From positions 269,027 through 333,026 of the forward strand of contig CAVQMZ010000015.1 of assembly GCA_963713725.1 (NCBI GenBank): a stretch of 64,000 nt of DNA, given 5' to 3'. The notes below the pieces were generated by a model that saw nothing but the letters and a program-made list of their open reading frames with translations, was not told the origin of the DNA and ran no database searches. Shown here piece by piece: positions 1,185 through 17,503 of the stretch. This stretch comes from an uncultured Bacteroidota bacterium. GTDB taxonomy: Bacteria; Bacteroidota; Bacteroidia; Bacteroidales; GCA-2748055. Numbering within the stretch: the first letter of the stretch is position 1; every line of letters starts with the position of its first letter. The translations under genes and the position numbers were made by a program.

Positions 1185-1259
1185 GGTCCGGTAGTTCAGT
1201 TTGGTTAGAATGCCGGCCTGTCACGCCGGAGGTCGCGGGTTCGAGTCCCGTCCGGACCG
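1185..1259 (+). tRNA. tRNA-Asp (anticodon GTC)
   Basis: A manual cloverleaf fits 75 nt. Acceptor stem GGTCCGG/CCGGACC, D arm GTTC...GAAT, anticodon stem CCGGC/GCCGG with loop CTGTCAC, T arm GCGGG-TTCGAGT-CCCGT, discriminator G. Confidence 0.95.
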
Positions 1260-1260
1260 C

Positions 1261-1540
1261 TTAATCAATCAAAACCCTGAAAAGCAATTTTCAGGGTTTT
1301 TTTATGGCCGTTTGCGAACCAAGCTTGCTTGAGTGAGCAAGCGGGCATAAAAAAACAAAGGCGCTTTAGCGCCAGGGTTTTAATTGATTATGCAAGTTAG
1401 CCCCCCGCAGGGGAAGGGTCGACTGACGAAGTCAGGCAATCCCCCGCAGGGGAAGGGAACCTGGCTCCAGCCAGGAATCCCACAGGGAAACTTGCGAAGC
1501 AATATCCCGCGAGGAACTTGAAAAGTCTGGCTACTTTCAC
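1261..1540. repeat. Nested inverted repeats and tandem degenerate mini-hairpins
   Basis: 1261-1278 (ttaatcaatcaaaaccct) is the near reverse complement of 1374-1390 (agggttttaattgatta). Inner hairpins include gcttgcttgagtgagcaagc and ggcgctttagcgcc. Four degenerate units follow, each a CCC(C)GCAGGGG-like motif plus a small stem-loop; cccccgcaggggaaggg occurs twice. Confidence 0.5.
1271..1303 (+). terminator. Rho-independent terminator after the tRNA
   Basis: Hairpin aaaacCCTGAAAAgcaaTTTTCAGGG followed by a T7 run. Confidence 0.6.
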
Positions 1541-1565
1541 CAACTAATAATTTCCATTTCTTTTA

Positions 1566-1573
1566 TACTTTTG
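1566..1573 (+). promoter_or_regulatory. Candidate Bacteroidota -7 box (TACTTTTG)
   Basis: Matches TAnnTTTG and ends 24 nt upstream of the ATG at 1598. Confidence 0.35.
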
Positions 1574-1597
1574 ATGCTGGATCAATAATAAGAAAAA

Positions 1598-2452
1598 ATG
1601 GAAGCAGACAAAAGCAGGAGCTTCAAGGAAATTGATGTAAAGGATTTGTTTTACGATAAAAATCCGAAACTGGCCAGGTGGATTCCTGGATTCATATATG
1701 CGTACTTAAGAAGAATAGCTCACCAGGATTTTGTCAATGAGATTATCAGGGATTATGGTCATTTGAAAGGATACGATTTCAGCGTGGCCATGATGAAGTT
1801 TTTCAATCTGACCATTGAAGTAATAGGAGAAGAAAATCTGCCAGATGATGGAAGGTACATTTTTGCAGCCAACCATCCCTGGGGCGGCTTAGACGGACAT
1901 ATTGCCATGGTTATCATCGGGAAGAAGTATGGTAAGGATAAGTATAAATGTCTTGTGAACGACATACTTATGAACCTGAAGAACCTTCATGGCGTATTTA
2001 TCCCTGTTAATAAGCATGGTAGACAGGGCTCCCAGCTGGCAGATCAACTAGATTCTGCATTTAAATCCGAGTCACAAATCCTTACTTTTCCCTCCGGACT
2101 GGTAAGCCGGAAGATTGATGGACAGGTGATGGATCTGGAATGGCAAAAAAGCTTCATCAATAAAGCAAAACAGTATCAAAGAGACATCATCCCCATACAC
2201 ATGGGAGGGGAAAATTCAAATTTCTTTTATCGTTTATACCGATTCAGGAAAGCTATAGGTATTAAAGCAAACATCGAGATGCTTTATTTAATTGACGAAT
2301 CGTATAAGCACCGTGGCAAGCATGTTACAGTTTCGATTGGTGAGCCTATCCCCTGGCAAACTTTCGATAAGTCAAAGCGACCATTAGCCTGGGCTAAATG
2401 GGTGAAAGACAAGGTCTATAAATTGGATGGTGTGGAAAATGTCCCGCTTTAG
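1598..2452 (+). CDS. Lysophospholipid/glycerol acyltransferase family protein (PlsC-like)
   Basis: 284 aa. Acyltransferase block FAANHPWGGLDG (an HX4D-type motif variant) and FPSGLVSR block. Confidence 0.7.
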   Translation: MEADKSRSFKEIDVKDLFYDKNPKLARWIPGFIYAYLRRIAHQDFVNEIIRDYGHLKGYDFSVAMMKFFNLTIEVIGEENLPDDGRYIFAANHPWGGLDGHIAMVIIGKKYGKDKYKCLVNDILMNLKNLHGVFIPVNKHGRQGSQLADQLDSAFKSESQILTFPSGLVSRKIDGQVMDLEWQKSFINKAKQYQRDIIPIHMGGENSNFFYRLYRFRKAIGIKANIEMLYLIDESYKHRGKHVTVSIGEPIPWQTFDKSKRPLAWAKWVKDKVYKLDGVENVPL

Positions 2453-2476
2453 CTCACTGCCCGTATAAAAGATCTT

Positions 2477-3972
2477 CTAATTCCTGTAAAACAATCGTTC
2501 CTGGGGAATGGGCGAAGGACTGTTCCCCCCGGGAGTTACATAGAGCAAATTAAGGGCCTTTCCTCCTCCTTTTTGGAAATATTCCAGACGGACCGGATAG
2601 AATCCCTCTTTCAGGGGTATGACATAGGTATGAGCCTTATCAGCTGTGTGCAAGCCGTTATTATCCAGGATCTGCCGATCTCCAATATATAGTTTTGATC
2701 CATCTTCCGAACTCAGTACAAAAATGTAGTATCCCTCTTCTTCAATTTGAATGAACCCCTCAAAGAGACAGGCAAAATTTGTCTTCTCATCCGGCGAATC
2801 CAGGCTGAAGTTCGCACTCGTAATTCCCCTGTTCACTGGTTCTATTGAACTGAAGTCAGGTAACTGATCCCATTCACCTTTGTAGAAAGAATAATTAATA
2901 CCACCCGATTCTGCCTTCTTTGGTTTCTTTCCAGCTCTGGGAACATCACCTTCCAGAAACTTCCCTTCAGCAATTTCTGAATCAAAATTTCCATGGGGAG
3001 AGATGGCTTTCACCTTCAAAATACAGGGTTCCGACAACTCTATTGTTTGTGCCATCATTTCTGAATCCTGATTTGGATCACTACCATCGCTTGTGTACCT
3101 CAATGTTTTACTCCCTGTTGCATTCCAGATTGTAATGGGTTTCCCCTTTTCGAAAATCCCGTTCATGGGGTGAAATTCCACCTGCATGGATGCATAGCCA
3201 TCGTAAGTATACCTTAAACCGTCGTAGGCATGTTTAAGTCTTGAAGTTCCATGGGTCTCATTCTCGTATGCCACTGATTTCCAGTGCAGGTCATCTGGTT
3301 TATACAAGCTGAGTACGGAATCCATTTTATCAATTCCCATGCCGGCATAGGCATTATGGTCCTTTCTGCCTGCAATGAATAGAATGCTATTCGTACCCTC
3401 CAGGGATGGCACCTTCTCAGCAGCCAGATCAACCATGTATCCGTCATCCCACCAGAAACTTGGGTCCCCAGCCAGGTAGGCATCAAAAAGTTTCGGCTCC
3501 TCCAGCAGTGCATACATAGTGAACACCCCGCCAAATGAGTGTCCCAGGAGAATATCTTCACCCTTTACAGGGTAATTTTCATCCATAAAGGGCATTAACT
3601 CGGACTTAATAAATTCAAGAAATTTGTCAGCACCTCCGGAGGTAGGTACACCCTCATTATGTGAAGGCAAAAAATCCCTGTTCCTATCAACATTCACAAT
3701 GGAAACAATGATAGTGGGCGGCATATGCTTTTCAACCCGGATAAAATCCCGGACGGTTCCAACCAGCTCCTGGTTCCAGGGCCCGTCCAGCAGATATATC
3801 GCTGCATATTTCTCCTCTGAATCTGCTTTGTAATTTTTCGGAAAAAGAATTTGTAAATGTCTTGCTCCCCAAGTATTTCTGAATGAAGGGAATCCTTCTC
3901 AATAAAGGCATTCTGGGAAAATAATGTACCTGAATAAACCAGGCACAGAATGAATATAGCTTTTAGTTTCAT
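2477..3972 (-). pseudogene. Secreted esterase (putative-esterase alpha/beta fold) with C-terminal PA14 domain, frameshifted near 3855-3870
   Basis: The signal peptide MKLKAIFILCLVYSGTLFSQ is in one frame. The body (RHLQILFPKNYKADSEEKYAAIYLLDGPWNQ...LLGHSFGG) is in another frame that joins ORF 2477-3724. The C-terminal GEWDQLPDF...YYIFVLSSEDGSKLYIGD...YFQKGGG is PA14-like. Confidence 0.75.
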
Positions 3973-4055: not shown

Positions 4056-4887
4056 CTCCCATCTTTATACCTGGAGAAGCTCATAGAAAAAAGGTACAGC
4101 CCCAATACCATCAAGACTTATGTATCATACATAAAGTCCTTTGCCAAAGAGTTCCAGGATCAATCACTTGATGTAGTCAGCACCCGACAAATTAACGATT
4201 ATCTATTGAATTTGATTCGTACTAAGGGCATTTCTGCATCGCAGCAGAACCAGAGAATCAGCGCTATCAAGTTTTACTATGAACATGTATTGGGAAGGGA
4301 AAAAGTATTTTACCAGCTTAGCAGGCCCAAAAAAGAAAGGAAGCTTCCAAAAGTCCTGACGGTTGAGGAAGTAGAACTCATTCTGGGACATGTCAACAAT
4401 ATAAAACATAAATGCATTCTGATGACAATTTATTCGGGCGGATTAAGAAGAAGCGAGCTGATCAATCTAAAAATTTGCGATATAGATTCCCAGCGTATGC
4501 TAATCAGAATTTCACACTCCAAAGGGAATAAGGATCGATATACACTACTGTCGGAGAAGCTGACTCAGCATTTAAGAATCTACTACCAGGCTTACAAACC
4601 CAGATACTGTGTTATTCGAAGGGCAGGGGGGAGGACAATACAGTGCCACCAGTATTGAAAAGATTTTCCGCAAGGCTTTGCAAAAGGCCAAAATCAAAAA
4701 GCACGCCACACCCCATAGCCTCAGGCACAGTTTTGCCACCCATCTTCTGGAACAGGGCATTAGCCTCCGCTATATACAAGAACTGCTTGGCCACTCCAGC
4801 ATCGCAACAACCGAAATTTATACCCATGTTAGTTCAAGACACCTTTCCAAAATCAAAAATCCCCTTGATAATTTGCATACATACTAA
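4056..4887 (+). pseudogene. Tyrosine recombinase (XerC/D-like, not IntI), N-terminally truncated and frameshifted near 4608-4612
   Basis: The translation shows LEKLIEKRYSPNTIKTY (SAM-like N-domain), GGLRRSEL (Arg I), KGNKDR, then after a frame change [12 protein letters not shown] and [16 protein letters not shown] (HxxR and catalytic Tyr). There is no start codon and no N-terminal arm. Only about 60 aa separate KGNKDR from HSLRH. Confidence 0.8.
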
Positions 4888-5324: not shown

Positions 5325-5461
5325 GCACACAACAATAGGTAAATTCCATTTGCCATGTCACACATTTTACACCCCAGAATCCAAACTCAGTTGAGAGCAA
5401 ATCACGTATGCAAAATGGTGTGCCATTTGGCAAACAGTTTATTTACCCGAACCGTTAGCAC
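5325..5461 (+). other. attC1
   Basis: GCACACAAC-aataggtaaattccatttgccatgtcac...tgccatttggcaaacagtttatttacccgaacc-GTTAGCAC. The two arms form an imperfect palindrome. Confidence 0.75.
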
Positions 5462-5492
5462 CATACTGGTTCTCCACTCTTGTATCCTTAAT

Positions 5493-5523
5493 TTTGATAT
5501 ATGTAACTTATAAGTTACCTTTG
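5493..5523 (+). promoter_or_regulatory. Cassette-internal promoter plus operator palindrome
   Basis: TTTG (5493-5496), 19 nt spacer, TACCTTTG (5516-5523), which fits the Bacteroides -33/-7 consensus. The perfect 16-bp palindrome GTAACTTATAAGTTAC (5503-5518) overlaps the -7 box. The ATG at 5528 is 4 nt downstream. Confidence 0.55.
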
Positions 5524-5527
5524 CCCT

Positions 5528-5872
5528 ATGGAGAAGGTTAGAGAGGTAATCGCCTATAAGCATTATTTCGAGTCGTTCTTGCGAAAGCAAAACACAAAAG
5601 TGCAAGACAAAATTTACAAAGTCATCGAGATTATTGAAACTTATGAGCGTGTCCCATCAACCTACCTCAAATATCTTAAAGGTACGGATGGTCTTTATGA
5701 GGCAAGAATAAAGCTTGGCTCAAATATCTGGAGAGTGTTTTGCTTTTTCGATGAAGGTAAATTGGTGATACTTTTAAATGGCTTTTCGAAGAAGTCACAG
5801 AAGACTCCTCAGAATGAGATAAATAAGGCTATTCGTTTAATGAAAATGTATTACGAAGAAAAAACAAAATAA
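5528..5872 (+). CDS. Type II toxin, RelE/ParE superfamily (phage Gp49-like / HigB-2-like)
   Basis: 114 aa. YKHYFESFL...LYEARIKLGSNIWRVFCFFDEGKLVILLNGFSKKSQKTPQNEI is characteristic of the Gp49/DUF891 toxin family. An XRE antitoxin gene follows after a 1-nt gap. Confidence 0.8.
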   Translation: MEKVREVIAYKHYFESFLRKQNTKVQDKIYKVIEIIETYERVPSTYLKYLKGTDGLYEARIKLGSNIWRVFCFFDEGKLVILLNGFSKKSQKTPQNEINKAIRLMKMYYEEKTK

Positions 5873-5873
5873 T

Positions 5874-6164
5874 ATGGAAACTAAAAGTTGGAAAGATATT
5901 AAGGATTCTGTCTATGGCAAACCAGGTACAGAAAGAAGAGATCAGTTGGACAGAGACCTTGAATCTGTAAAAATAGGGCTCCTTCTTCGCAAAGCCAGAG
6001 AAGAAAAGAACTTAACTCAAGCTCAATTGGCAGACCTCGTAGACAAGAAAAGGACATACATCTCAAGAGTGGAGAATAACGGTAGTAATCTTACTCTTAA
6101 AACGTTATATGACATAGTTGAAAAGGGCTTAGGCGGAAAGGTGAATATTTCAATTGATATTTAA
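5874..6164 (+). CDS. XRE-family helix-turn-helix antitoxin
   Basis: 96 aa. The HTH reads LRKAREEKNLTQAQLADLVDKKRTYISRVENN. It is adjacent to the toxin gene. Confidence 0.8.
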   Translation: METKSWKDIKDSVYGKPGTERRDQLDRDLESVKIGLLLRKAREEKNLTQAQLADLVDKKRTYISRVENNGSNLTLKTLYDIVEKGLGGKVNISIDI

Positions 6165-6170
6165 TAGTAC

Positions 6171-6422
6171 GTGCGCTAACATTGTGCAAACTCAATATTG
6201 GCTTTTCACGTGCTTTGCACTTGGAAAATCATATCTTTAAATGAGAGATTGTTAAGTCAATCTATAACAAACTGTACAAAACAATTGCAAACGCAAAGCC
6301 CGCGCCAAGTTCCGCTCCGGCCCTCATTGGGAGGAAGGCTGGATTAACAGTTTCGCAAGAAACATGGTTGGCAGGAATGAGGACCGGAGCGCCAACACAG
6401 AGTTTGCACCAACCGTTAGGCC
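6171..6422 (+). other. attC2 (unusually long, 252 bp)
   Basis: GTGCGCTAAC-attgtgcaaactc ... gagtttgcaccaacc-GTTAGGCC. It contains an inner second palindrome: cgctccggccctcatt / aatgaggaccggagcg. Confidence 0.65.
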
Positions 6423-6457
6423 TAATAGCGAAAAAACTATTCTAGCACGGATTTTGT

Positions 6458-6465
6458 TATATTTG
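6458..6465 (+). promoter_or_regulatory. Candidate -7 box TATATTTG for the ParE-type cassette
   Basis: TAnnTTTG match ending 19 nt upstream of the ATG at 6485. Confidence 0.4.
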
Positions 6466-6484
6466 ATACAGATACATTTCAGAA

Positions 6485-6667
6485 ATGATAACTAAGACTC
6501 AAATTATCGATTCCCTCAGCAATCTTCCAGAGAACTTGACTATTGATCAGGTAATTGATCATTTAGTTGTTGTCGAAAAAATCCAAAAAGGGCTAGAGGA
6601 TTCAGAAAACGGGCGTGTCTATAATAAGGATCAAGCTAAGGATAAGCTGAAGAAATGGCTGAAGTAA
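6485..6667 (+). CDS. Small antitoxin-like protein paired with a ParE/RelE toxin
   Basis: 60 aa. It overlaps the downstream toxin gene by 13 nt. The C-terminal GRVYNKDQAKDKLKKWLK is typical of Bacteroidota addiction-module antitoxins. Confidence 0.6.
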   Translation: MITKTQIIDSLSNLPENLTIDQVIDHLVVVEKIQKGLEDSENGRVYNKDQAKDKLKKWLK

Positions 6668-6972
6668 TCTGGACAGAATCTGCACTGGCTGATTTGGAAG
6701 ATATCGGCGAATACATTGCAAAAGATTCCGTTAGATATGCTGAGCTAATTGTTACGAAGCTTTTCGGATCACCTGATATTCTTGAATTGAATCCAAAAGC
6801 CGGGAAAATGGTTCCTGAGCTTCAGAATGAATCTATACGCCAAATAATTAGGGGAAGTTATCGAATTATATACCATTTAGTTGACGAATATAGAATTGAT
6901 ATTTTAACTGTTCACCGATCTTCACGATTGTTAAGTAATACATACGATTTCGAAGATATCGTCAATGAATAA
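6655..6972 (+). CDS. Type II toxin, RelE/ParE family
   Basis: 105 aa. IWTESALADLEDIGEYIAKDS...GSYRIIYHLVDEYRIDILTVHRSSR matches the ParE pattern. Confidence 0.8.
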   Translation: MAEVIWTESALADLEDIGEYIAKDSVRYAELIVTKLFGSPDILELNPKAGKMVPELQNESIRQIIRGSYRIIYHLVDEYRIDILTVHRSSRLLSNTYDFEDIVNE

Positions 6973-6981
6973 GTACTACAA

Positions 6982-7079
6982 GGCCTAACAATAGATATAC
7001 TCCATTTGCCTTGTCATGCTTTTTGAAACAAAAAGCCCGCCATTTGGCAAACGTTTAGTATATCCGGACCGTTAGACGC
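6982..7079 (+). other. attC3
   Basis: GGCCTAAC-aata-gatatactcc-atttgcc..gctttttgaaacaaaaagc..ggcaaacg-tttagtatatccggacc-GTTAGACGC. The arms pair by eye: gatatact/agtatatc and gcttttt/aaaaagc. Confidence 0.8.
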
Positions 7080-9846: not shown

Positions 9847-9982
9847 ACAGCTAACATTGAGTAAACTCCATTTGCCATGTCACACTTTTTGCACCCCAGA
9901 ATCACAGGTAACTGAGAAATCCTTAAATTGGCAAAAAGGTGTGCCATCTGGCAAACAGTAATTTACTCCGGCCGTTATGGGC
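9847..9982 (+). other. attC5
   Basis: ACAGCTAAC-attgagtaaactccatttgccatgtcac...ggcaaacagtaatttactccggcc-GTTATGGGC. The roughly 105-nt core is identical to attC6. Confidence 0.8.
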
Positions 9983-10156
9983 AAGCATTTGAGGGCAAAT
10001 AACTAATTCGAAAGACTTGTGAAATGTACTGAAATAACTAACCTTCAGATACAGAGAATACCAGTATGATTGGAATCCACTGCGATACAATCAGATAAAC
10101 CATGACCGTTTGATGATAAGGCTATAGTTTTTTAGAAAGTCTGCTTGTTTCAATAT

Positions 10157-10765
10157 CTAATAAGTAATCTCTCCTTCTCCAGTAAAACTCCACCGGCCTT
10201 CAGCATCAGTATATCCATACATAAGGAAATACCCGTTGGCATCCTGGTATTTTTCCGTACCTCCAATAATCGTGTAAGGATAAAAAAGATTGGGCGGATT
10301 CTCCAAATCGGGGTAAGGAATTCCCATCATCGTATGAATCTCACTTCCGCATGCAGCCGTTATAAATCCATAAACAGGGCTCATAAAAGTACCATCCCAG
10401 TCCATGCAGGCCAGGTTCTGAACTTTGAACAAACCGAGATGAGTGGCAATTCCGCTGCCCTCGATAACCATCTGTAATGGTGCCGGGATCCCGGCACAGT
10501 ATCCCGCATCTGGCACAATGCTAAATGTTCCGGTTGATCTTTTAAATTCAATGCTTTTTGTTAAAGCTTTCTTTCCTGATTTTGCGGATTTTAACGCAGC
10601 CTGCAGATCAAAATCATCTGCCTGGTATTGATTAAAGGCTCTAATGTATGGTTCAAGTACAAAATCGGTCTCTTCAACCATTCTTTCCCGGGTATCCAGA
10701 ATCTCATCCTGGCAGGAGGAAGATAACAGCATAATTCCGATAAGGAATAAAACATTCTTTTTCAT
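10157..10765 (-). CDS. Lipoprotein of unknown function
   Basis: 202 aa. MKKNVLFLIGIMLLSSSCQDE is a lipobox signal peptide. It lies downstream of the kinase gene on the same strand. Confidence 0.55.
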   Translation of the reverse strand: MKKNVLFLIGIMLLSSSCQDEILDTRERMVEETDFVLEPYIRAFNQYQADDFDLQAALKSAKSGKKALTKSIEFKRSTGTFSIVPDAGYCAGIPAPLQMVIEGSGIATHLGLFKVQNLACMDWDGTFMSPVYGFITAACGSEIHTMMGIPYPDLENPPNLFYPYTIIGGTEKYQDANGYFLMYGYTDAEGRWSFTGEGEITY

Positions 10766-10895
10766 GATCTGGTGGTTTTATATTTTTAAACAAACTGCCT
10801 GCAAGCAGACAAGTATCCCAATAAAGGTACTTCAGACATCCAAGCCCTGCTTTGCTCAGAATCTCAAATGTTTTGGAAATTGTCTCAATTACAGA

Positions 10896-13073
10896 TTATT
10901 GGACGGACTTCACTACTTCACTCGGTGAATAACCAAACTCTTCCCTGAATGTAGTACTGAAATGGGATAAATTTTTAAAACCCGAGGCCAGGGCAGCTTC
11001 CGTGACATTTGAAGCCCTGCTTTCCAGCATTACTTTTGCCTTGTACAGGCGATATGACCTGATGTAGCGGCCAATGGACATGTTTGTTAGTGCAGTGAAT
11101 TTGCGATAAAGCTGAGGACGGCTCATCCCGATGGAGGAGCAAATATCAGTCACACCGAAATTTTCCATATGCAGCTTTCCATCCAGGAGCTTGTTTATTT
11201 TGTCCAGGAAAATAAGTTCCTGCTTGTAGGCATTATTATCCTGATGCGTTTGCAGTGGAACTACCTTTAGCTTATCCTGCATTTTGCGCCTGGCAATAAG
11301 CAGGTTATTCAGCTTGAGGAATAGTTCTTTTTCATTGAAAGGTTTAACAAGGAAATGGTCCGCACCAATTTCAAGCCCCTTTATTTTTGATTGAAAATCA
11401 CCCCTGGCCGTAAGGACTACAACCGGAATATGATCTGTATGGATATCAGTCTTCAGTTGATCGAGCAATTCATATCCATCCATTTTCGGCATCATAATAT
11501 CGGTGAGGATAATATCGGGTATTATCTGAAGTGCCTTTTCAAATCCTTGTTCCCCGTTGGAAGCTATTTCGATTATGAATTGATTTTCAAGCACTGACAC
11601 CATATATTCCACTACGTCGTTATTATCATCAACAATCAGGAGAATAGGTTTATCGGGGGACATAACGGCCCTGATTTCCTGATCCTTACCCGGATCCCTG
11701 GTTGGCAGTACATGCTGAGAAGCAGAAGGATTCAGCAGTGAAATGCCATGATCTGCATCCTCCCGGGCTTCTCTGGTAGCCGGCAGACTCACTACGAATT
11801 CCGATCCCTCATTCACCTTGCTCTCAACCCGTATTTCTCCCTTCATCATATGTACCAGTTCCCTCGTAAGTGTAAGGCCGAGACCTGTACCAGGGGTCTC
11901 TTCGTCAATATCCGGAACTTGATAGAATCGTTCGAAGATGTATTTAACAGCTTCCGTTGGTATCCCTTTCCCTGTATCCCTGACATGAATATTCACTGTT
12001 TCCGTATCTCCTTGTGTTCTATTAAATACTTCAACATCTATATGACCACCCGGGGGAGTGAATTTAATGGCATTCGATACGAGGTTGCTAATGATGTGCA
12101 TCAGCTTATCGGGATCGTAGTCCATTTGCAGAGAAACATTGTCTGTTTTAAACTTCAATGTAATGTTCTGGCTTTCGGCAAGGCCATGGAAAGATCCGGT
12201 AAGGTATTTTATATACTTAACAATATCGCCCTGAATGAGATCCAGGTGCATGCTCCCGGCCTCAATCTTGCTGATATTCAGCATTTGGTTCACCAGCCTC
12301 AGAAGAATCTGGCTTTGCATTCTTATTTTGCCAGGTCCCTCTTTCAGCCATTTATCTTTGTGATTTTCCATCTGCTCAGCAATTCCTGAAATGACCGTGA
12401 GCGGAGTACGGAATTCGTGAGACACATTGGTGTAGAGCCGGGTTTTTGCTTCGTCAATTTTTCTTAAACTGTCGGCTTCTCGTTTTTCATAGCGGTTTTT
12501 ATCTTTCATAAATAGGATCACAAGGAACAGCATGCAGGCATTTATCCAGAGATTAAGTACGACGAAGAGAATGGTATTTGTCCTGTATGAAAAGTCTGAT
12601 GGTATTTCTAAATATGGTTGGAGAATACCCGTTAGAACTATGGTCGCACCGTACAAAAGGAAAATTCCAACTGTCCAGCGGATTTTTCCTGCCAGCACCG
12701 ATCCCATGGCACAGTTAATCCCTATAAAAACCAAACCATTGGATGTTTCGAGTCCGCCAAACTTCAACATGGCAAAAAATATCGCAATGATGAAGTAAGA
12801 GAACAAAATGTTCATGACCAGGTCGAAACGCCTCAACCTCCTGAAAAGAGGGAAAGCAACCGCATAGCCCATTAAGAAAGCAGGACCCGCCCACCAGGCC
12901 TGTAATACATCCAGAACAAGAAACAATATGGTTGAAAAGATAACTCCGATACAGGTTACAACCATCCATATCCAGGCCCAACGCTTACGAAGAAGTGCCT
13001 CTGACTCAAGCCTTGAATCTGCAAGGTACCGGTCGATCCACGCAAGGATCTCCTGTTTCGAATATAATTTCAT
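10896..13073 (-). CDS. Hybrid sensor histidine kinase / response regulator with C-terminal AraC-type HTH
   Basis: About six N-terminal TM helices, HisKA H-box SHEFRTPLT, HATPase N/G boxes (NAIKFTPPGG, DTGKGI, GTGLGLTL), receiver domain (LLIVDDNNDV...DIMMPKMDG...LTAR...KPF), and AraC HTH (SHFSTTFREEFGYSPSE). The start is taken at MKLYSK; the ORF extends to 13088. Confidence 0.85.
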   Translation of the reverse strand: MKLYSKQEILAWIDRYLADSRLESEALLRKRWAWIWMVVTCIGVIFSTILFLVLDVLQAWWAGPAFLMGYAVAFPLFRRLRRFDLVMNILFSYFIIAIFFAMLKFGGLETSNGLVFIGINCAMGSVLAGKIRWTVGIFLLYGATIVLTGILQPYLEIPSDFSYRTNTILFVVLNLWINACMLFLVILFMKDKNRYEKREADSLRKIDEAKTRLYTNVSHEFRTPLTVISGIAEQMENHKDKWLKEGPGKIRMQSQILLRLVNQMLNISKIEAGSMHLDLIQGDIVKYIKYLTGSFHGLAESQNITLKFKTDNVSLQMDYDPDKLMHIISNLVSNAIKFTPPGGHIDVEVFNRTQGDTETVNIHVRDTGKGIPTEAVKYIFERFYQVPDIDEETPGTGLGLTLTRELVHMMKGEIRVESKVNEGSEFVVSLPATREAREDADHGISLLNPSASQHVLPTRDPGKDQEIRAVMSPDKPILLIVDDNNDVVEYMVSVLENQFIIEIASNGEQGFEKALQIIPDIILTDIMMPKMDGYELLDQLKTDIHTDHIPVVVLTARGDFQSKIKGLEIGADHFLVKPFNEKELFLKLNNLLIARRKMQDKLKVVPLQTHQDNNAYKQELIFLDKINKLLDGKLHMENFGVTDICSSIGMSRPQLYRKFTALTNMSIGRYIRSYRLYKAKVMLESRASNVTEAALASGFKNLSHFSTTFREEFGYSPSEVVKSVQ

Positions 13074-13133
13074 TGCTGCCCCATACAAGTTACCATAAAT
13101 TATTCATTAATAAAACAATAGGGAAACATGCAT

Positions 13134-13269
13134 GCCCATAACATAGAGTAAATTCCATTTGCCATGTCACACTTTTTGCACCCCAGAATCACAGGTAACT
13201 GAGAAATCCTTAAATTGGCAAAAAGGTGTGCCATCTGGCAAACAGTAATTTACTCTAACCGTTATGAGC
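13134..13269 (+). other. attC6
   Basis: GCCCATAAC-atagagtaaattccatttgccatgtcac...ggcaaacagtaatttactctaacc-GTTATGAGC. Confidence 0.8.
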
Positions 13270-13296: not shown

Positions 13297-14340
13297 ATGA
13301 ATATGACAAAAAAACAAATAAAACGAATTCTCAGAATAGTATTTATTATGGCAAGCATATCCTCCCTGTTCTTTGTACCATGGCTTTTGGTAAAGGCGTG
13401 GATACTTCCGCTACCGGATACGGTTCAGGAACAGTTAGATGAGGCCATTGGTCATGGATTTGACGGAATGATTGTTTATGTAGACCAAGCTGGTAAACCA
13501 CCTCAGTATTTTGCTTCCGGCTGGCACGATCGAGAATCCAAGATACCTGCCAAACCTCAAGCCCTATTTAAGATTGCCAGCATCAGCAAGCTATATGATG
13601 CTGTGGCTGTCACCAAATTGGTAAGTGATGGACGTCTTTCTTTGGATAAAACCATCGCCGATTATTTACCGGAGCTTGTAGGAAGAATTGAAAACGCTGA
13701 GAAAATTACCTTGAGGTTGATGATACAGCATAGAAGTGGCATTCCCAATTTTACGGACGCTCCGAATTTTTGGGCAGCTCCAACAGAGACCTATGAAGAA
13801 AGTCTTGCATTGATTCTGGACAAGCCGGCCAACTTTGAACCCGGTGAAGACTATGAATATTGTAATACAAATTATCTGTTAATCAATAAGATAATGGATG
13901 ATGCGCTAGGTTATGGGAACTTTCAATTCATTCAGGAAGAAATTCTAATGCCGCTAAATCTTAACAATACCTTCGGTTCGCTAAGTGAAGTGAATATAGA
14001 CGATGTGATGAGTGGCTATCATGTAGGACATCCCTTTGATTTAAAGGCAGACGAACATGGCATGTTAGCCACAGCAGAAGACGTGGGTACTTTCCTAAGG
14101 GCATTGAACGATGGATCATTGTTTGAACAGGGAGAACAGGAAATATATTCTTCCATTTATGAGTATGAACATGCAGGTTGGGTTCCGGGATACCAGAGTT
14201 TTGCAAAATATCACAAAGACCTTGATGCTGTTGTTATTGAGTTCTACAGCACAACCGATCCTAAACTGTACAATTGGAACTTGTCAGAAATCATAAATAA
14301 TAGAATTGTTAAAATACTGAAAAGGCAAAAAAGCTCATAA
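13297..14340 (+). CDS. Serine hydrolase, beta-lactamase/transpeptidase fold (class C-like), cassette-encoded
   Basis: 347 aa with an N-terminal TM/signal segment and an S-x-x-K motif (FKIASISKLYDAV). The stop codon overlaps the attC7 inverse core. Confidence 0.75.
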   Translation: MNMTKKQIKRILRIVFIMASISSLFFVPWLLVKAWILPLPDTVQEQLDEAIGHGFDGMIVYVDQAGKPPQYFASGWHDRESKIPAKPQALFKIASISKLYDAVAVTKLVSDGRLSLDKTIADYLPELVGRIENAEKITLRLMIQHRSGIPNFTDAPNFWAAPTETYEESLALILDKPANFEPGEDYEYCNTNYLLINKIMDDALGYGNFQFIQEEILMPLNLNNTFGSLSEVNIDDVMSGYHVGHPFDLKADEHGMLATAEDVGTFLRALNDGSLFEQGEQEIYSSIYEYEHAGWVPGYQSFAKYHKDLDAVVIEFYSTTDPKLYNWNLSEIINNRIVKILKRQKSS

Positions 14341-14466
14341 CACTAGGTAAACTCCATTTGCTATGTCACACATTTTGCACCACAATATCCAAACTCAACC
14401 AAGAGCATTACCGTATGCAAAATGGTGCGCCATTAGCAAACGTTAGTATACTCAAACCGTTATTGC
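14333..14466 (+). other. attC7 (its GTT core is interrupted by, or abuts, the group II intron)
   Basis: GCTCATAAC-actaggtaaactccatttgctatgtcac...gccattagcaaacgttagtatactcaaacc-GTTATTGC. It belongs to the same subfamily as attC1. Confidence 0.75.
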
Positions 14467-15114
14467 GACACGAAGTCGTATAAATGATAGTTTTACTAAG
14501 ATTCAGTTCTTTGATAAAACCTGCTGTTTCCCCAGCAGTACCCTACCGGGACAACTGATGTATGGTGCAGCCATTATTGGTTGAAGCTCCCTGGAAATTG
14601 TACCAAACGTTTGGGTCGAGTATCCTTAAAACGGGGCTGAAAACCGTGAGGTGGATAGTCCTCGGAGTCTCAAAGCCGATTTAGGGCATGGGTTTATGGG
14701 TATGGCTAAAGTAATTGAACACTCCGCAACTGCCGTGATCACGTAGGGAGCGAAAAAGAGAATGACACGCTCTTAACCAAAAGGTAGGCTGGCAAGTTAT
14801 AAGCGTTTAACGCAGCTTATACGGGAACGTAGCCCAGTCGGCAGACAGGATGAGCCTAACCTCATTATTTTGTCATTTATACGGAACGTGGAAGCCCGAC
14901 GCTCTCTCCCAACTACCTCGTGCAGGTAACAGGGATAAAACCGTAACCGCAAGGCATCGGGAAACGTCGGACAGAGAAGTTGGAACAAGCGAATGCTGCA
15001 TTGTAATGGTGCAGATAGCAGTTGAGATATCACTGCGGACGAAAGTTCTGCTGACCTCCAACCGGTGCTTTTTGGCAAGAAAACTTTATAGAACCTGTCA
15101 ATGGTAGAAAGCAA

Positions 15115-16639
15115 ATGAACGAGGATGTAAATCTTTCGTGTGCAATACCACACCACACTGATAACTGGCACAGCATTATCTGGCGTCAGGTTATCCAAAG
15201 GGTGCGCAGGCTGCAAAGGAGGATCGCCAAGGCTGTGAAAGAAGGTCGTTGGGGCAAAGCTAAAGCCCTGATGTACCTGGTATCCAAATCATTTTATGCT
15301 AAGTTGCTGGCCGTATTTAGAGTAAGCTCCAATAAGGGAAGTACTACTCCGGGAGTGGACAAGATCGTTTGGATAAACGACCATGCAAAACTCCAGGCAG
15401 CCAGAAGCCTCAAAGCAAGAGGCTATACTCCAAAGCCTCTTCGAAGGGTGTATATCCTGAAGAAGAATGGCAAGAAACGACCATTGAGCATACCATCAAT
15501 GCATGACAGGGCGATGCAAGCCCTGTATGCCATAGCGCTTGATCCTGTTGCTGAGACAACAGCTGACCCGAACTCTTATGGGTTCAGGGAGAAAAGGTCA
15601 TGTGCTGATGCTATCGCCCAATGCTTTTTGTCGTTGTGTAGGAAAACGTCATCTCAGTGGGTGTTTGAAGCAGATATTAAATCTTGCTTTGACCAAATCG
15701 ATCATGATTGGATAATGGAGAATATCCCATCAACAAAACCATCCTCAAAAAATGGTTGAAGTCGGGATACATCGAAAAAAACTCTGTTTCCAACTAAAAG
15801 AGGAACGCCACAGGGCGGTACAATTCCCCTACGATCATGAATATGGTTCTGGATGGTATGGAAATGCTATTAAGAAACACTTCCCTCGGTGGAAAGGACA
15901 AAAAGTAAACTTCATCCGATATGCGGATGACTTTGTGATCACTGCTTCCACATACGAAGCACTGAAATATGAAGTAATCCCTCTGGTGAAGGATTTTCTC
16001 TCTGTGAGAGGGCTCTCCCTCTCCAAAGATAAATCCAAAATCACCCATATCAACGATGGATTTGACTTTTTATCACAAAATATCCGAAAATACAAGGGTA
16101 AATTGTTGATACGTCCCTCCAGGGAGCCTATCCAGTCTTTCAAGGATAAGTTGAAAGACATACTCAGGAGAAACAGGGGAATCCCTGCCCATGGACTAAT
16201 CCGGCTACTTAACCCTGTTATCAGGGGGTGGTCGAATTACCATAAAGGGATATGTTCCAAACTCACCTTCTACAAGTTGGGGACTTTCATTTATTGGCAA
16301 TTAAAACGGTGGGCGAAATACCAGCACGGAAATAAGAACCGACGCTGGATACATAGGCGATACTTCTTAAACACACATTTTACTGACACCAGGACCTCTG
16401 ACAAGGGTAAAGACGTATATCGGCTTTATCGAATTGGTCATGTTCCTATAAGGTATCATGTGAAGATCAGAAGCCTTGCCAATCCCTACCTGCCGGTATA
16501 TGACAAGTACTTTTTCCAACGCAGAGCTTGTAGAGATCTCTTAGCAAAAGAATGTAAACAAATCACTACTTTTAGTGGTAAGGAAACCAACGTTAACAGC
16601 CGGGTGTCCCCGCATGGGGCACGCCTTAAAAGCGCTTGA
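15115..16639 (+). pseudogene. Group II intron reverse transcriptase/maturase, four frameshifts, no endonuclease domain evident
   Basis: RT blocks are present: RRVYILKKNGKKRPLSIPSMHDRAMQ, YGFREKRSCADA, FEADIKSCFDQIDHD, (frame changes) TPQGGTISPTIMNMVLDG, FIRYADDFVI. The maturase X block is LNPVIRGWSNYH. Frame changes occur near 15727, 15785, 15825 and 15868. Confidence 0.85.
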
Positions 16640-16696
16640 GCCATATGCGACGAAAGCCGCACGTAGGGTTCTTAGGGGGCGTAAGCTACCCGGTTT
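16638..16696 (+). ncRNA. Group II intron domains V and VI
   Basis: Domain V is 34 nt with the AGC triad and a GAAA tetraloop. Domain VI is GGGGGC-GTAA-GCT[A]CCC with a GNRA loop and a bulged A at 16688, the candidate branch point, 7-8 nt before 16695/16696. Confidence 0.7.
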
Positions 16697-16732
16697 GCTC
16701 ACATACTGGTTCTCCACTCTTGTAATCTCAAT

Positions 16733-16763
16733 TTTGATATATGTAACTTATAAGTTACCTTTG
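16733..16763 (+). promoter_or_regulatory. Second copy of the TA cassette promoter and operator
   Basis: TTTG, then 19 nt, then TACCTTTG, with the same 16-bp palindrome GTAACTTATAAGTTAC at 16743-16758. Confidence 0.55.
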
Positions 16764-16767
16764 TTCT

Positions 16768-17112
16768 ATGAAGAAGGTTAGAGAGGTAATCGCCTATAAG
16801 CATTATTTCGAGTCTTTCTTGCGAAAGCAAAATACAAAAGTGCAAGACAAGATTTACAAAGTCATCGAGATTATTGAAACTTATGAGCGTGTCCCATCAA
16901 CCTACCTCAAATATCTTAAAGGTACGGATGGTCTTTATGAGGCAAGAATAAAGCTTGGCTCAAATATCTGGAGAGTGTTTTGCTTTTTCGATGAAGGCAA
17001 ATTGGTGATTCTCTTAAATGGCTTTTCGAAGAAGTCACAGAAGACTCCTCAGAATGAGATAAATAAGGCTATTCGTTTAATGAAAATGTATTATGAAGAA
17101 AAAACAAAATAA
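16768..17112 (+). CDS. Type II toxin, Gp49-like RelE/ParE superfamily (second copy)
   Basis: The 114-aa product is identical to that of 5528-5872 except E2K. I counted seven synonymous nucleotide differences. Confidence 0.8.
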   Translation: MKKVREVIAYKHYFESFLRKQNTKVQDKIYKVIEIIETYERVPSTYLKYLKGTDGLYEARIKLGSNIWRVFCFFDEGKLVILLNGFSKKSQKTPQNEINKAIRLMKMYYEEKTK

Positions 17113-17113
17113 A

Positions 17114-17404
17114 ATGGAAACTAAAAGTTGGAAAGATATTAAGGATTCTGTCTATGGCAAACCAGGTACAGAAAGGAGAGATCAGTTGGACAGAGACCTT
17201 GAATCTGTAAAAATAGGGCTCCTTCTTCGAAAAGCCAGAGAAGAAAAGAACTTAACTCAAGCTCAATTGGCAGACCTCGTAGACAAGAAAAGGACATACA
17301 TCTCAAGAGTGGAGAATAACGGTAGTAATCTTACTCTTAAAACGTTATATGACATAGTTGAAAAGGGCTTAGGAGGAAAGGTGAATATTTCAATTGATAT
17401 TTAA
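17114..17404 (+). CDS. XRE-family antitoxin (second copy)
   Basis: The protein is identical to that of 5874-6164, with three synonymous differences. The start is taken at METKSW. Confidence 0.8.
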   Translation: METKSWKDIKDSVYGKPGTERRDQLDRDLESVKIGLLLRKAREEKNLTQAQLADLVDKKRTYISRVENNGSNLTLKTLYDIVEKGLGGKVNISIDI

Positions 17405-17410
17405 TAGTAC

Positions 17411-17503
17411 GTGCGCTGTGTAAATTCCATATTGCCTGTCACGCGGAAAAAAGCAAAAGTCGCACCAGGTGTACAGTATTTGCAATATACGTCGTTAGCA
17501 CAC
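17411..17503 (+). other. attC8 (short; the inverse core lacks AAC)
   Basis: GTGCGCT-gtgtaaattccatattgcctgtcacgcgg...gtatttgcaatatacgtc-GTTAGCACAC. Confidence 0.6.

Follow-up and report, generated by a model that had tools for sequence, protein, structure and literature searches.

A degenerate group IIB1 intron in an attC site of an uncultured Bacteroidales bacterium, and a lineage that appears to target the top strand of integron cassettes

The element considered here is a group II intron that splits an integron recombination site, attC7, within a cassette array of an uncultured Bacteroidota bacterium (Bacteroidales, GCA-2748055). It lies in a stretch of 64,000 nt, hereafter the window (GenBank assembly GCA_963713725.1, contig CAVQMZ010000015.1, positions 269,027 to 333,026 of the forward strand), to which all positions given without a locus name refer. 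The intron is very probably a degenerate mobile element of group IIB1 with a chloroplast-like-1 (CL1) reverse transcriptase (RT) that has no endonuclease, and one whose lineage retrohomes into the top, or coding, strand of attC sites. What, then, does an intron of this kind read in an attC site, and how does it differ from the class C introns that are the familiar occupants of such sites?

Within attC7 the R' core is divided as aaaCCGTTA|TTGCGACACGAAGTCG...GCTACCCGGT|TTGCTCACATACTGGTTCTCC, with the 3' exon starting TTGCTCAC and the 3' flank continuing TTGCTCACATACTGG, and the intron has the orientation of the cassette genes, which is to say sense, on the + strand. An earlier note on this DNA, made from the letters alone, had described a group II intron in the GTT-containing R' core in this orientation, a description borne out by Rfam and Pfam and by the logic that relates R'' to cassette starts. 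The boundaries proposed there, 14464-16695, were correct in the ligated exons they gave, which are identical on removal of 14463-16694, and were out of place by 1 nt. In more than 30 related copies the string TTGCGAC...CTACCCGGT is kept exactly and the flanks differ, boundaries at 14463-16694 place UUGCG in the usual GUGCG register, and the Rfam match to domain VI stops at 16694, in agreement with the corrected 3' boundary. The intron is consequently without the consensus 5'-GUGYG...AY-3' ends and has UUGCG...GU. Its relatives show two types of end, either GUGCG...AC or AU, or UUGCG, UCGCG or CUGCG followed by ...GU or GC, and the covariation of the first with the penultimate nucleotide is perfect across about 45 of them (loci L035-L080): G1 goes with A, and U1 or C1 with G, as is also seen in the close pair L041 (G..A) and L037 (U..G). 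The first and penultimate intron nucleotides are reportedly in contact, as Chanfreau and Jacquier are said to have described in 1993. The coordinated change of the ends fits this contact and would represent a variant rather than a reason for exclusion from group II, and the covariation argues that the boundaries are functional. The insertion interrupts no open reading frame (ORF): the stop of cassette 7 is 122 nt upstream of it, and the start codon of cassette 8 follows 73 nt downstream. It follows GTTR, 3 nt past the attC crossover G|TT, and because the crossover thus lies upstream of the intron, the established integron mechanism makes the intron part of the downstream cassette, with which it would be expected to move. 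Rfam detected no second copy within the 64-kb window.

Judged by the sequences of its protein and its ribozyme, the intron is a member of group IIB1 with a CL1-type RT and not of class C, the S.ma.I2 type to which the earlier note had assigned it. Against proteins of solved structure the RT scores 521 bits with the CL1 enzyme of T.el4h (6ME0_C), compared with 122 (7UIM) and 98 (6AR1) bits for class IIC RTs and 119 bits for LtrA. T.el4h (= Th.e.I3) belongs to IIB1 and encodes a CL1 RT (PMC8643678). The window RT also shares 50% identity, over 465 residues, with the protein of the metagenomic intron UHB.I2, for which a phylogeny gave a CL1 placement (PMC7923331). In a crude neighbour-joining sketch of the proteins, from which loci L009 and L022 were disregarded because the RT of a neighbouring intron had been taken, the introns with Y1..G ends, UHB.I2 and the Bacteroidales clade group together. 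Pfam recognises RVT_N, RVT_1 and GIIM in two ORF pieces, 15115-15759 and 15752-16639, and finds no HNH or endonuclease domain in the intron protein, which when repaired reaches 345.8 bits against TIGR04416 of NCBIfam (cut-off 300) and aligns gap-free with intact homologues at up to 91% identity.

The RNA points to the same class. The Rfam model of domains V and VI, RF00029, matches at 16636-16694 on the + strand with 47.6 bits, and the defining features of the two domains are all present, namely a 34-nt domain V with its triad and 2-nt bulge and a bulged A in domain VI; the positions of domain V, of the GUAA loop and of the bulged A (Table 1) are those that the earlier note had given. The triad of domain V in class IIC is CGC (PMC7923331). 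The domain I-IV fold that the note had wished to see modelled is coherent, with 173 pairs in the consensus of ten copies, 81 of them with compensatory changes on both sides. The UAUGG/CCUAA pair within it is presumably the motif known as zeta. Some 650 nt of ribozyme precede the ORF, with the EBS2-loop architecture of IIB introns (EBS, exon-binding site); this length, which had seemed odd for class C, is simply that of a IIB intron.

The host site can be identified from the logic of the array. The + strand of the window carries a series of cassettes with attC ends at about 5458, 6420, 7076, 7815, 9975, 13265, 14462, 17500 and 18210, and in six of these cassettes the start is the reverse complement of the cassette's own R''. 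For instance, GTTATGAGC at 13262 (G|TTATGAGC) is the exact reverse complement of R'' GCTCATAAC at 14333, and the starts GTTAGGCC at 6416, GTTAGACGC at 7072 and GTTATGGGC at 9972 are likewise the reverse complements of their own R'' boxes, which read GGCCTAAC, GCGTCTAAC and GCCCATAAC respectively. The + strand is therefore the top strand of attC. DNA folding gives the bottom strand the greater stability in 8/8 attC sequences; in attC7 it reaches -18.8 kcal/mol, against -12.3 for the top strand. A scan of the array with Rfam (E <= 5) matched no attC-like model, so that attC identity was judged from cassette logic and folding; the integron attC features are present as R'' (RYYYAAC) and R' (GTTRRRY) cores together with the complementarity of start and R'' in the six cassettes. 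The stop codon of cassette 7 falls within R'' of attC7. On the far side of the intron, from CATACTGG onwards, cassette 8 is, at 97%, a copy of the cassette with an uninterrupted start at 5454, and the earlier observation that this cassette start resumes after the insert thereby holds.

Relatives of the intron show that this location is characteristic. In a genome scan that took one genome per species, 34 loci were found with RTs 65-78% identical to that of the window, all of them in Bacteroidales (Prolixibacteraceae, Marinilabiliaceae and related groups), and at least 16 copies lie on one contig of a single metagenome-assembled genome (MAG). Among the 29 distinct 5' junctions in the Bacteroidales genomes, 25 end in CGTTA| or CGTTG|, and in these 25 the bases C, G, T and T at -5..-2 are invariant. 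The first base of the 3' exon may be any of the four, even among near-identical copies, and +5..+7 are mostly CAA. When metagenomes were scanned with the intron's initial 18 nt as query, 108 distinct junctions were obtained, of which 52 end in CGTTR and most others belong to retargeted sub-lineages. For an attC target, the spliced cassette start should find its complement in an R'' box further downstream, and the reverse complement of TTR plus the first 6-7 nt of the 3' exon, followed by C, does indeed occur 275-870 nt downstream in 8/27 loci, against a chance expectation of about 0.004 per locus; it also occurs in two Verrucomicrobiota loci, and none of the 8 is found when the unspliced junction is used. 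Such complementarity means that the targets are attC R' boxes, that the intron is on the top strand and that the boundaries are exact. The lineage is thus, to judge from where its members sit, one that homes to attC R' cores on the top strand; copies at attC elsewhere, which the earlier note had named as a check, do exist, and the placement in the window is not due to chance. In addition, 76 distinct CGTTR junctions have more structure in the DNA upstream of them than 60 CGTTR control sites from the same loci (median z -2.1 vs -0.74, Mann-Whitney p = 2.4e-7), a comparison that is conservative because the controls include empty attC sites.

Recognition of the core can be read from the pairing between EBS1 and the intron-binding site IBS1. 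In the window intron the EBS1 UAACG, located in a hairpin loop of domain ID, pairs over 5 bp with CGTTA, and across the relatives the guide changes with the site. Copies with CAACG are at CGTTG| (9/9 in the MAG with at least 16 copies), those with UAACG are at CGTTA|, or at CGTTG| by a U.G wobble, CGUAUG copies are at CAUACG|, one CGUAC copy is at GUGCG|, and in a metagenomic sister group CGACC is matched by GGTCG|. More distant relatives, at about 50% protein identity and with canonical GUGCG ends, form 6 bp from the same hairpin, as in CUAACG/CGTTAG|, CGAACG/CGTTCG| and CAUAAC/GTTATG|. This covariation shows that the intron RNA recognises the invariant R' core through a 5-bp EBS1-IBS1 pairing. 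Of the pairings with CCGTTAT and TGCTCAC that the earlier note had proposed, that of EBS1 is accordingly present, with CGTTA as IBS1, and that of EBS3 is doubtful, the first 3'-exon base being unconstrained; its four values argue against a fixed EBS3-IBS3 pair.

The second guide has fared differently. In the canonical relatives 5-6 nt of a slot that reads cgucg-U-C-A-[EBS2]-aacaagcc and lies about 65 nt 5' of EBS1 pair with exon positions -13..-8, in agreement with the published IIB 'EBS2 loop' and its EBS2a nucleotide (PMC8643678). In the window the same slot pairs at 2/5 positions (UCACG vs ACUCA), and EBS2-IBS2 matching is at chance level in 33/44 sites of the attC clade, including the window and its nearest intact relative; most copies have one common EBS2. 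Two other candidates for EBS2 were rejected. The element GGGUAUGG (14698-14705), complementary to exon AUACUC, belongs to covarying helices and a tetraloop-receptor motif, and the 15-nt loop AAAAAGAGAAUGACA is conserved regardless of the target. No consistent column emerged when 5-7-mers with complementarity to exon -6..-18 were sought blindly. The comparison of copies shows that the EBS2-IBS2 pairing and the constraint on the first 3'-exon base have been lost in most members, the window copy included. What remains is hardly enough, for CGTTR is expected every ~500 nt and yet the insertions are at attC R' boxes. Since the 5 bp of EBS1 give too little specificity, something else in attC is presumably read, either the hairpin or conserved bases (YATAY, -17..-12). 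Three retargeted copies that sit 6 nt past the domain VI hairpin of another intron hint that it is structure that is read.

Two rival explanations can be weighed against this evidence. That it is a class C intron of the IIC-attC, S.ma.I2 type, lying in the sense orientation by chance and with an enlarged ribozyme, is suggested by its location in attC, the targeting of which was long known only for class C (PMC4424553), and by a recognition that is IIC-like in its short IBS1, its missing EBS2 pairing and its upstream hairpin. Yet the RT is nearest to CL1/IIB1 by a wide interval in bits (521 against 98-122), the triad is AGC and not CGC, the ribozyme of about 650 nt has the IIB EBS2 loop, and the site is R' of the top strand and not the TTGT/T of bottom-strand R'', all of which make class C membership highly improbable. 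The idea of a chance insertion beside attC, unrelated to integrons, could draw on the presence of only one copy in the 64-kb window; set against the 76 distinct CGTTR junctions in genomes and metagenomes, the R'' complementarity in 10 loci and the covariation of EBS1 with IBS1, its probability is close to nil.

More serious is the view that homing is of the ordinary sequence-specific kind, brought about by EBS1 and by protein contacts such as one to YATAY at -17..-12, in which case hairpin and single-strandedness would be irrelevant and orientation would merely reflect the strand that carries the sequence. Positions -17..-10 are partly conserved among the target attC sites, one family matches EBS2 and EBS2a fully to the attC consensus of its genome (C-CGCCA-NN-ACGTTG), and retargeted variants follow their EBS1 to sequences outside attC. 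However, closely related introns use attC sites that across genomes share little beyond CGTTR, the three retargeted copies are again 6 nt past a strong hairpin, and structure is enriched upstream of the junctions, so this view is possible but rather doubtful. A broader reading is that a widespread CL1/IIB1 lineage, whose hosts include Bacteroidota, Verrucomicrobiota and probably further phyla, evolved attC homing independently and as the mirror image of class C, on the top strand, in R' and in the sense orientation, with recognition reduced to an IIC-like minimum of 5 bp of EBS1 on CGTT and the hairpin context, a coordinated change of the intron ends, and a spliceable, cassette-borne hitch-hiker's way of life that leaves the cassettes unsilenced. 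The balance of the evidence tips somewhat in its favour. Several points weigh against the main explanation, that of a degenerate IIB1 intron from an attC-homing lineage. The protein tree is only a neighbour-joining sketch, and the many copies come from few MAGs, so that distinct junctions were counted that are not fully independent events. One family keeps EBS2-IBS2, with UGGCG/CGCCA at -12..-8 in 11/11 sites of one MAG. The role of the hairpin is deduced from the enrichment of structure and the insufficiency of a 5-mer. The G of EBS1 could form a wobble pair with the TGTTA of the bottom strand, which means that the choice of strand is not accounted for by base-pairing alone. Finally, the array is formally a cassette array with an Xer-like pseudogene and without a proven IntI: the recombinase, directly upstream of the first cassette and oriented like the cassettes, passes NCBIfam NF040815 ('XerA / integron integrase') with 230 bits (cut-off 220), fails TIGR02249 with 218 bits in two pieces (cut-off 265), and in its span of 4063-4887 lacks the insertion that defines IntI.

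The copy in the window is itself no longer intact. The earlier note had rightly seen an RT/maturase ORF with YADD and an X domain and had missed both the four frame corrections that it needs and a mismatch in domain V. The frame is broken by deletions of 1, 2, 1 and 1 nt at 15731, 15783, 15824 and 15877, in RT blocks 4-5, and these four, all within 150 nt, are the only indels in 2232 nt relative to L081, an intact metagenome copy that is 91% identical over the intron and inserted as CCGTTA|...|TGCCCAA. The surrounding patch, 15701-15900, is the most diverged part, with 78% identity to L081 compared with 91% for the whole intron, and could have been acquired from a more diverged, decayed copy or could reflect a local assembly problem. 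In domain V both partners of pair 6-29 have changed to give A16643.G16666, which is G-C in all 30 other copies; EBS1 is still complementary to its own site. Programmed frameshifting of the RT gene was rejected as an explanation, as four shifts would be needed and none is found in relatives. Could the copy nevertheless be functional, with frameshifts and domain V changes that are sequencing or assembly errors, for example from a collapsed multi-copy repeat? Random decay would seldom place four deletions within 150 nt (roughly 1e-3), introns present in many copies pose problems for assembly, and contigs of relatives are often broken at the intron. Against this, the other 2070 nt are free of indels relative to an intact copy of 89-91% identity, no deletion falls in a homopolymer run, substitutions too are most frequent in this patch, both domain V substitutions fall in one base pair, and long ORFs elsewhere in the window are intact, which leaves errors of this kind an unlikely cause. 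The window copy is probably a degenerate, immobile relic that would splice at best with help supplied in trans.

How does the lineage compare with known systems? Its nearest precedent is UHB.I2, a single IIB1/CL1 intron from the Tanatar-5 soda-lake metagenome (Sonbol & Siam 2021, PMC7923331), which shares the ends 5'-UUGCGAC...CCCGGU-3', a CL1 RT without endonuclease, the sense orientation and the location directly after an attC. For UHB.I2 no EBS3 bulge was found and the homologues were reported to have 'poor conservation' of flanking exons (PMC7923331), and in the window lineage the first 3'-exon base is free. The combination of sense orientation, U1 and post-attC site, which the earlier note had taken as unusual for a new host lineage, had thus been published once before (PMC7923331). 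A full-text literature search brought up nothing later on UHB.I2 or on attC introns outside class C. Unlike the report on UHB.I2, which described one copy and drew no link between its EBS1 and the attC core, the window lineage has dozens of copies per genome in Bacteroidales and occurs in Verrucomicrobiota as well, its CGTTR targeting is backed by covariation, and its EBS2 pairing is mostly lost. A multi-phylum, multi-copy lineage with EBS1 matched to the attC core and the IIB guides largely lost goes beyond that paper and appears to be new. The EBS1 loop of UHB.I2 contains GAACG, from which a CGTTC| site is predicted. With T.el4h and EcI5 the lineage has in common the EBS1 hairpin and EBS2-loop architecture, T.el4h being also the closest solved RT, and the N-EBS2a-A spacer of these introns is clear in the canonical relatives of the window intron (PMC8643678). 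Canonical IIB1/CL1 introns such as these have a homing site of 20-35 bp, EBS1, EBS2, EBS2a and EBS3, and GUGYG...AY ends; in contrast, EBS1 in the window lineage pairs over 5 bp, EBS2 pairing is mostly absent, there is no EBS3 constraint and the ends are Y1...G(-2).

The resemblance to the IIC-attC introns (S.ma.I2 and relatives) is one of habit, in that both are endonuclease-less, insert in attC 3' of a hairpin, use a short IBS1 that overlaps the GTT core and do without EBS2 pairing, but the IIC-attC introns differ in their class C RT, CGC triad and small ribozyme. They are found on the bottom strand, in R'' (TTGT/T), antisense to the cassettes (PMC7923331), and are described as not spliceable from cassette transcripts and as supplying outward promoters (PMC7923331, PMC3001079). 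Both CGTTA, in R' of the top strand, and TGTTA, as the complement of R'' in the bottom strand, occur at every attC of the window; TGTTA fits the IIC-attC consensus TTGT/T, and the two kinds of intron thus use mirror-image sites. One class C intron in an attC's top strand is cited for Enterobacter cloacae in a passage of PMC7923331 (its reference 31), and as cited there it differs from the window lineage in being of class C and a single case. A 2015 review regarded attC targeting as a property of class C and described homing sites for every lineage except class C (PMC4424553).

The proposed mechanism brings these observations together. EBS1 would select the core, the attC hairpin, or conserved attC sequence recognised by the protein, would supply the remaining specificity, and recognition would therefore be IIC-like on a IIB scaffold. 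Endonuclease-less group II introns are known to use replication forks. As it has no endonuclease, the lineage would probably invade the single-stranded top strand when it serves as lagging-strand template. The GC skew of the + strand is positive in 13/16 bins of the window, and the top strand is probably, though on a weak indication, that template. In the sense orientation the intron would be co-transcribed with the array and spliced, and as it is spliced out the downstream cassettes would not be silenced. Located at the 5' end of the downstream cassette, it would be carried along in excision and re-integration.

Table 1. Features of the intron, its attC site and the neighbouring cassettes in the window
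Feature	Position	Strand	Basis
Group II intron, 2232 nt, IIB1/CL1-like, ends 5'-UUGCG...GU-3'	14463..16694	+	Rfam, conserved boundaries, covarying fold
IBS1 CGTTA, last five 5'-exon bases, containing crossover triplet G|TT	14458..14462	+	complementary to EBS1 UAACG
Domain I segment, Rfam RF02012 (group-II-D1D4-7)	14520..14686	+	58.5 bits, E = 1.7e-9
UAUGG, 5' half of 11-nt GAAA-tetraloop receptor; partner CCUAA at 14855-14859	14701..14705	+	sequence; flanking helices covary
Homologue of the IIB 'EBS2 loop': U-G-A (EBS2a = G14737), then UCACG	14736..14743	+	position from canonical relatives
EBS1 hairpin UAUAAGC-GUUUAACGCA-GCUUAUA; EBS1 UAACG at 14808-14812	14798..14821	+	covariation of stem and loop
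RT/maturase pseudogene, 509 aa when repaired; RVT_N, RT with YADD, X domain	15115..16639	+	Pfam
Domain V, 34 nt, AGC triad, GAAA loop, AC bulge	16638..16671	+	RF00029
Domain VI, GUAA loop, bulged branch-point A16688 seven nt from 3' end	16675..16691	+	Rfam, comparison of copies
attC7, from R'' GCTCATAAC (14333-14341) to the first four R' bases GTTA (14459-14462)	14333..14462	+	R''/cassette-start complementarity, folding
3' exon start TTGCTCAC, remainder of R' and first bases of cassette 8	16695..16702	+	sequence
Cassette 7 ORF, serine hydrolase, beta-lactamase family	13297..14340	+	Pfam PF00144, E = 1.5e-38
Cassette 8, Gp49-like toxin and helix-turn-helix antitoxin pair	16695..17500	+	97% copy of cassette 2 (5455-6416)
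Tyrosine recombinase pseudogene, Xer-like, N-terminally truncated, one frameshift near 4620	4063-4887	+	profile matches

A number of further observations concern the array and the relatives. Despite the 97% duplication, cassette 8 ends in another attC than cassette 2; its R'' is without TAAC (gtgcgc|tgtgtaaattcc at 17418, compared with gtgcgcTAACattgtgc at 6172 in cassette 2), and the first bases also differ, with GTTA-TTGCTCAC in cassette 8 and GTTA-GCACC in cassette 2. Cassette 6 (9976-13262) is unusually large and contains two genes of the - strand, of 202 and 730 aa, at 10157-13088, opposite to the array. At the other end of the window (1185-1259 and 1400-1460) lie a tRNA gene (69.8 bits) and, after it, a terminator-like hairpin and cccccgcaggggaaggg in two copies, a region that may be the edge of an integrated element adjoining the array. 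Among the relatives, lineage copies with EBS1 CGUAUG at L009 3360, L022 3360 and L019 7048 are found 6 nt past the 3' end of another intron (..CUACUCGAC CAUACG|), and L008 2939-7412 consists of two complete copies head to tail with zero bases between them. A sister sub-lineage from metagenomes (L082-L201, for example L091, L112, L132, L161 and L189) has the same first 18 nt and EBS1 CGACC, and occupies about 25 distinct sites of the form ..CCAAGTTNCGGTCG|, often directly past the end of an ORF. Other group II lineages share these cassette arrays with members of the window's lineage and are also in the sense orientation (L010 6571-8458, L009 ~1200-3353, L019 ~5590-7041 and L033 up to 493), with canonical GUGUG/GUGCG...AC ends and matches to Rfam D1D4-2 or D1D4-7, and the one in L010 is inserted directly past an R' box (GTTAGCGGCAAGC|).

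As a decayed relic the window copy is of little functional interest, and its importance lies in the lineage to which it leads. With this lineage, group II introns would have colonised integrons a second time and by an independent route, with a strand logic opposite to that of class C, and through a readable mechanism in which the EBS1 guide is matched to the one sequence that every attC must keep; in 2021, with one IIB1 intron behind an attC, only speculation was possible (PMC7923331). It bears on how long guide pairings may be lost in favour of the recognition of structure, a transition from IIB to IIC-like behaviour, and on whether a programmable IIB1 scaffold with minimal target needs could serve as a tool. 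It bears equally on whether introns affect how cassettes are expressed, shuffled and duplicated in large chromosomal arrays, where the copies, at least 16 of them in one MAG, are ready substrates for homologous recombination.

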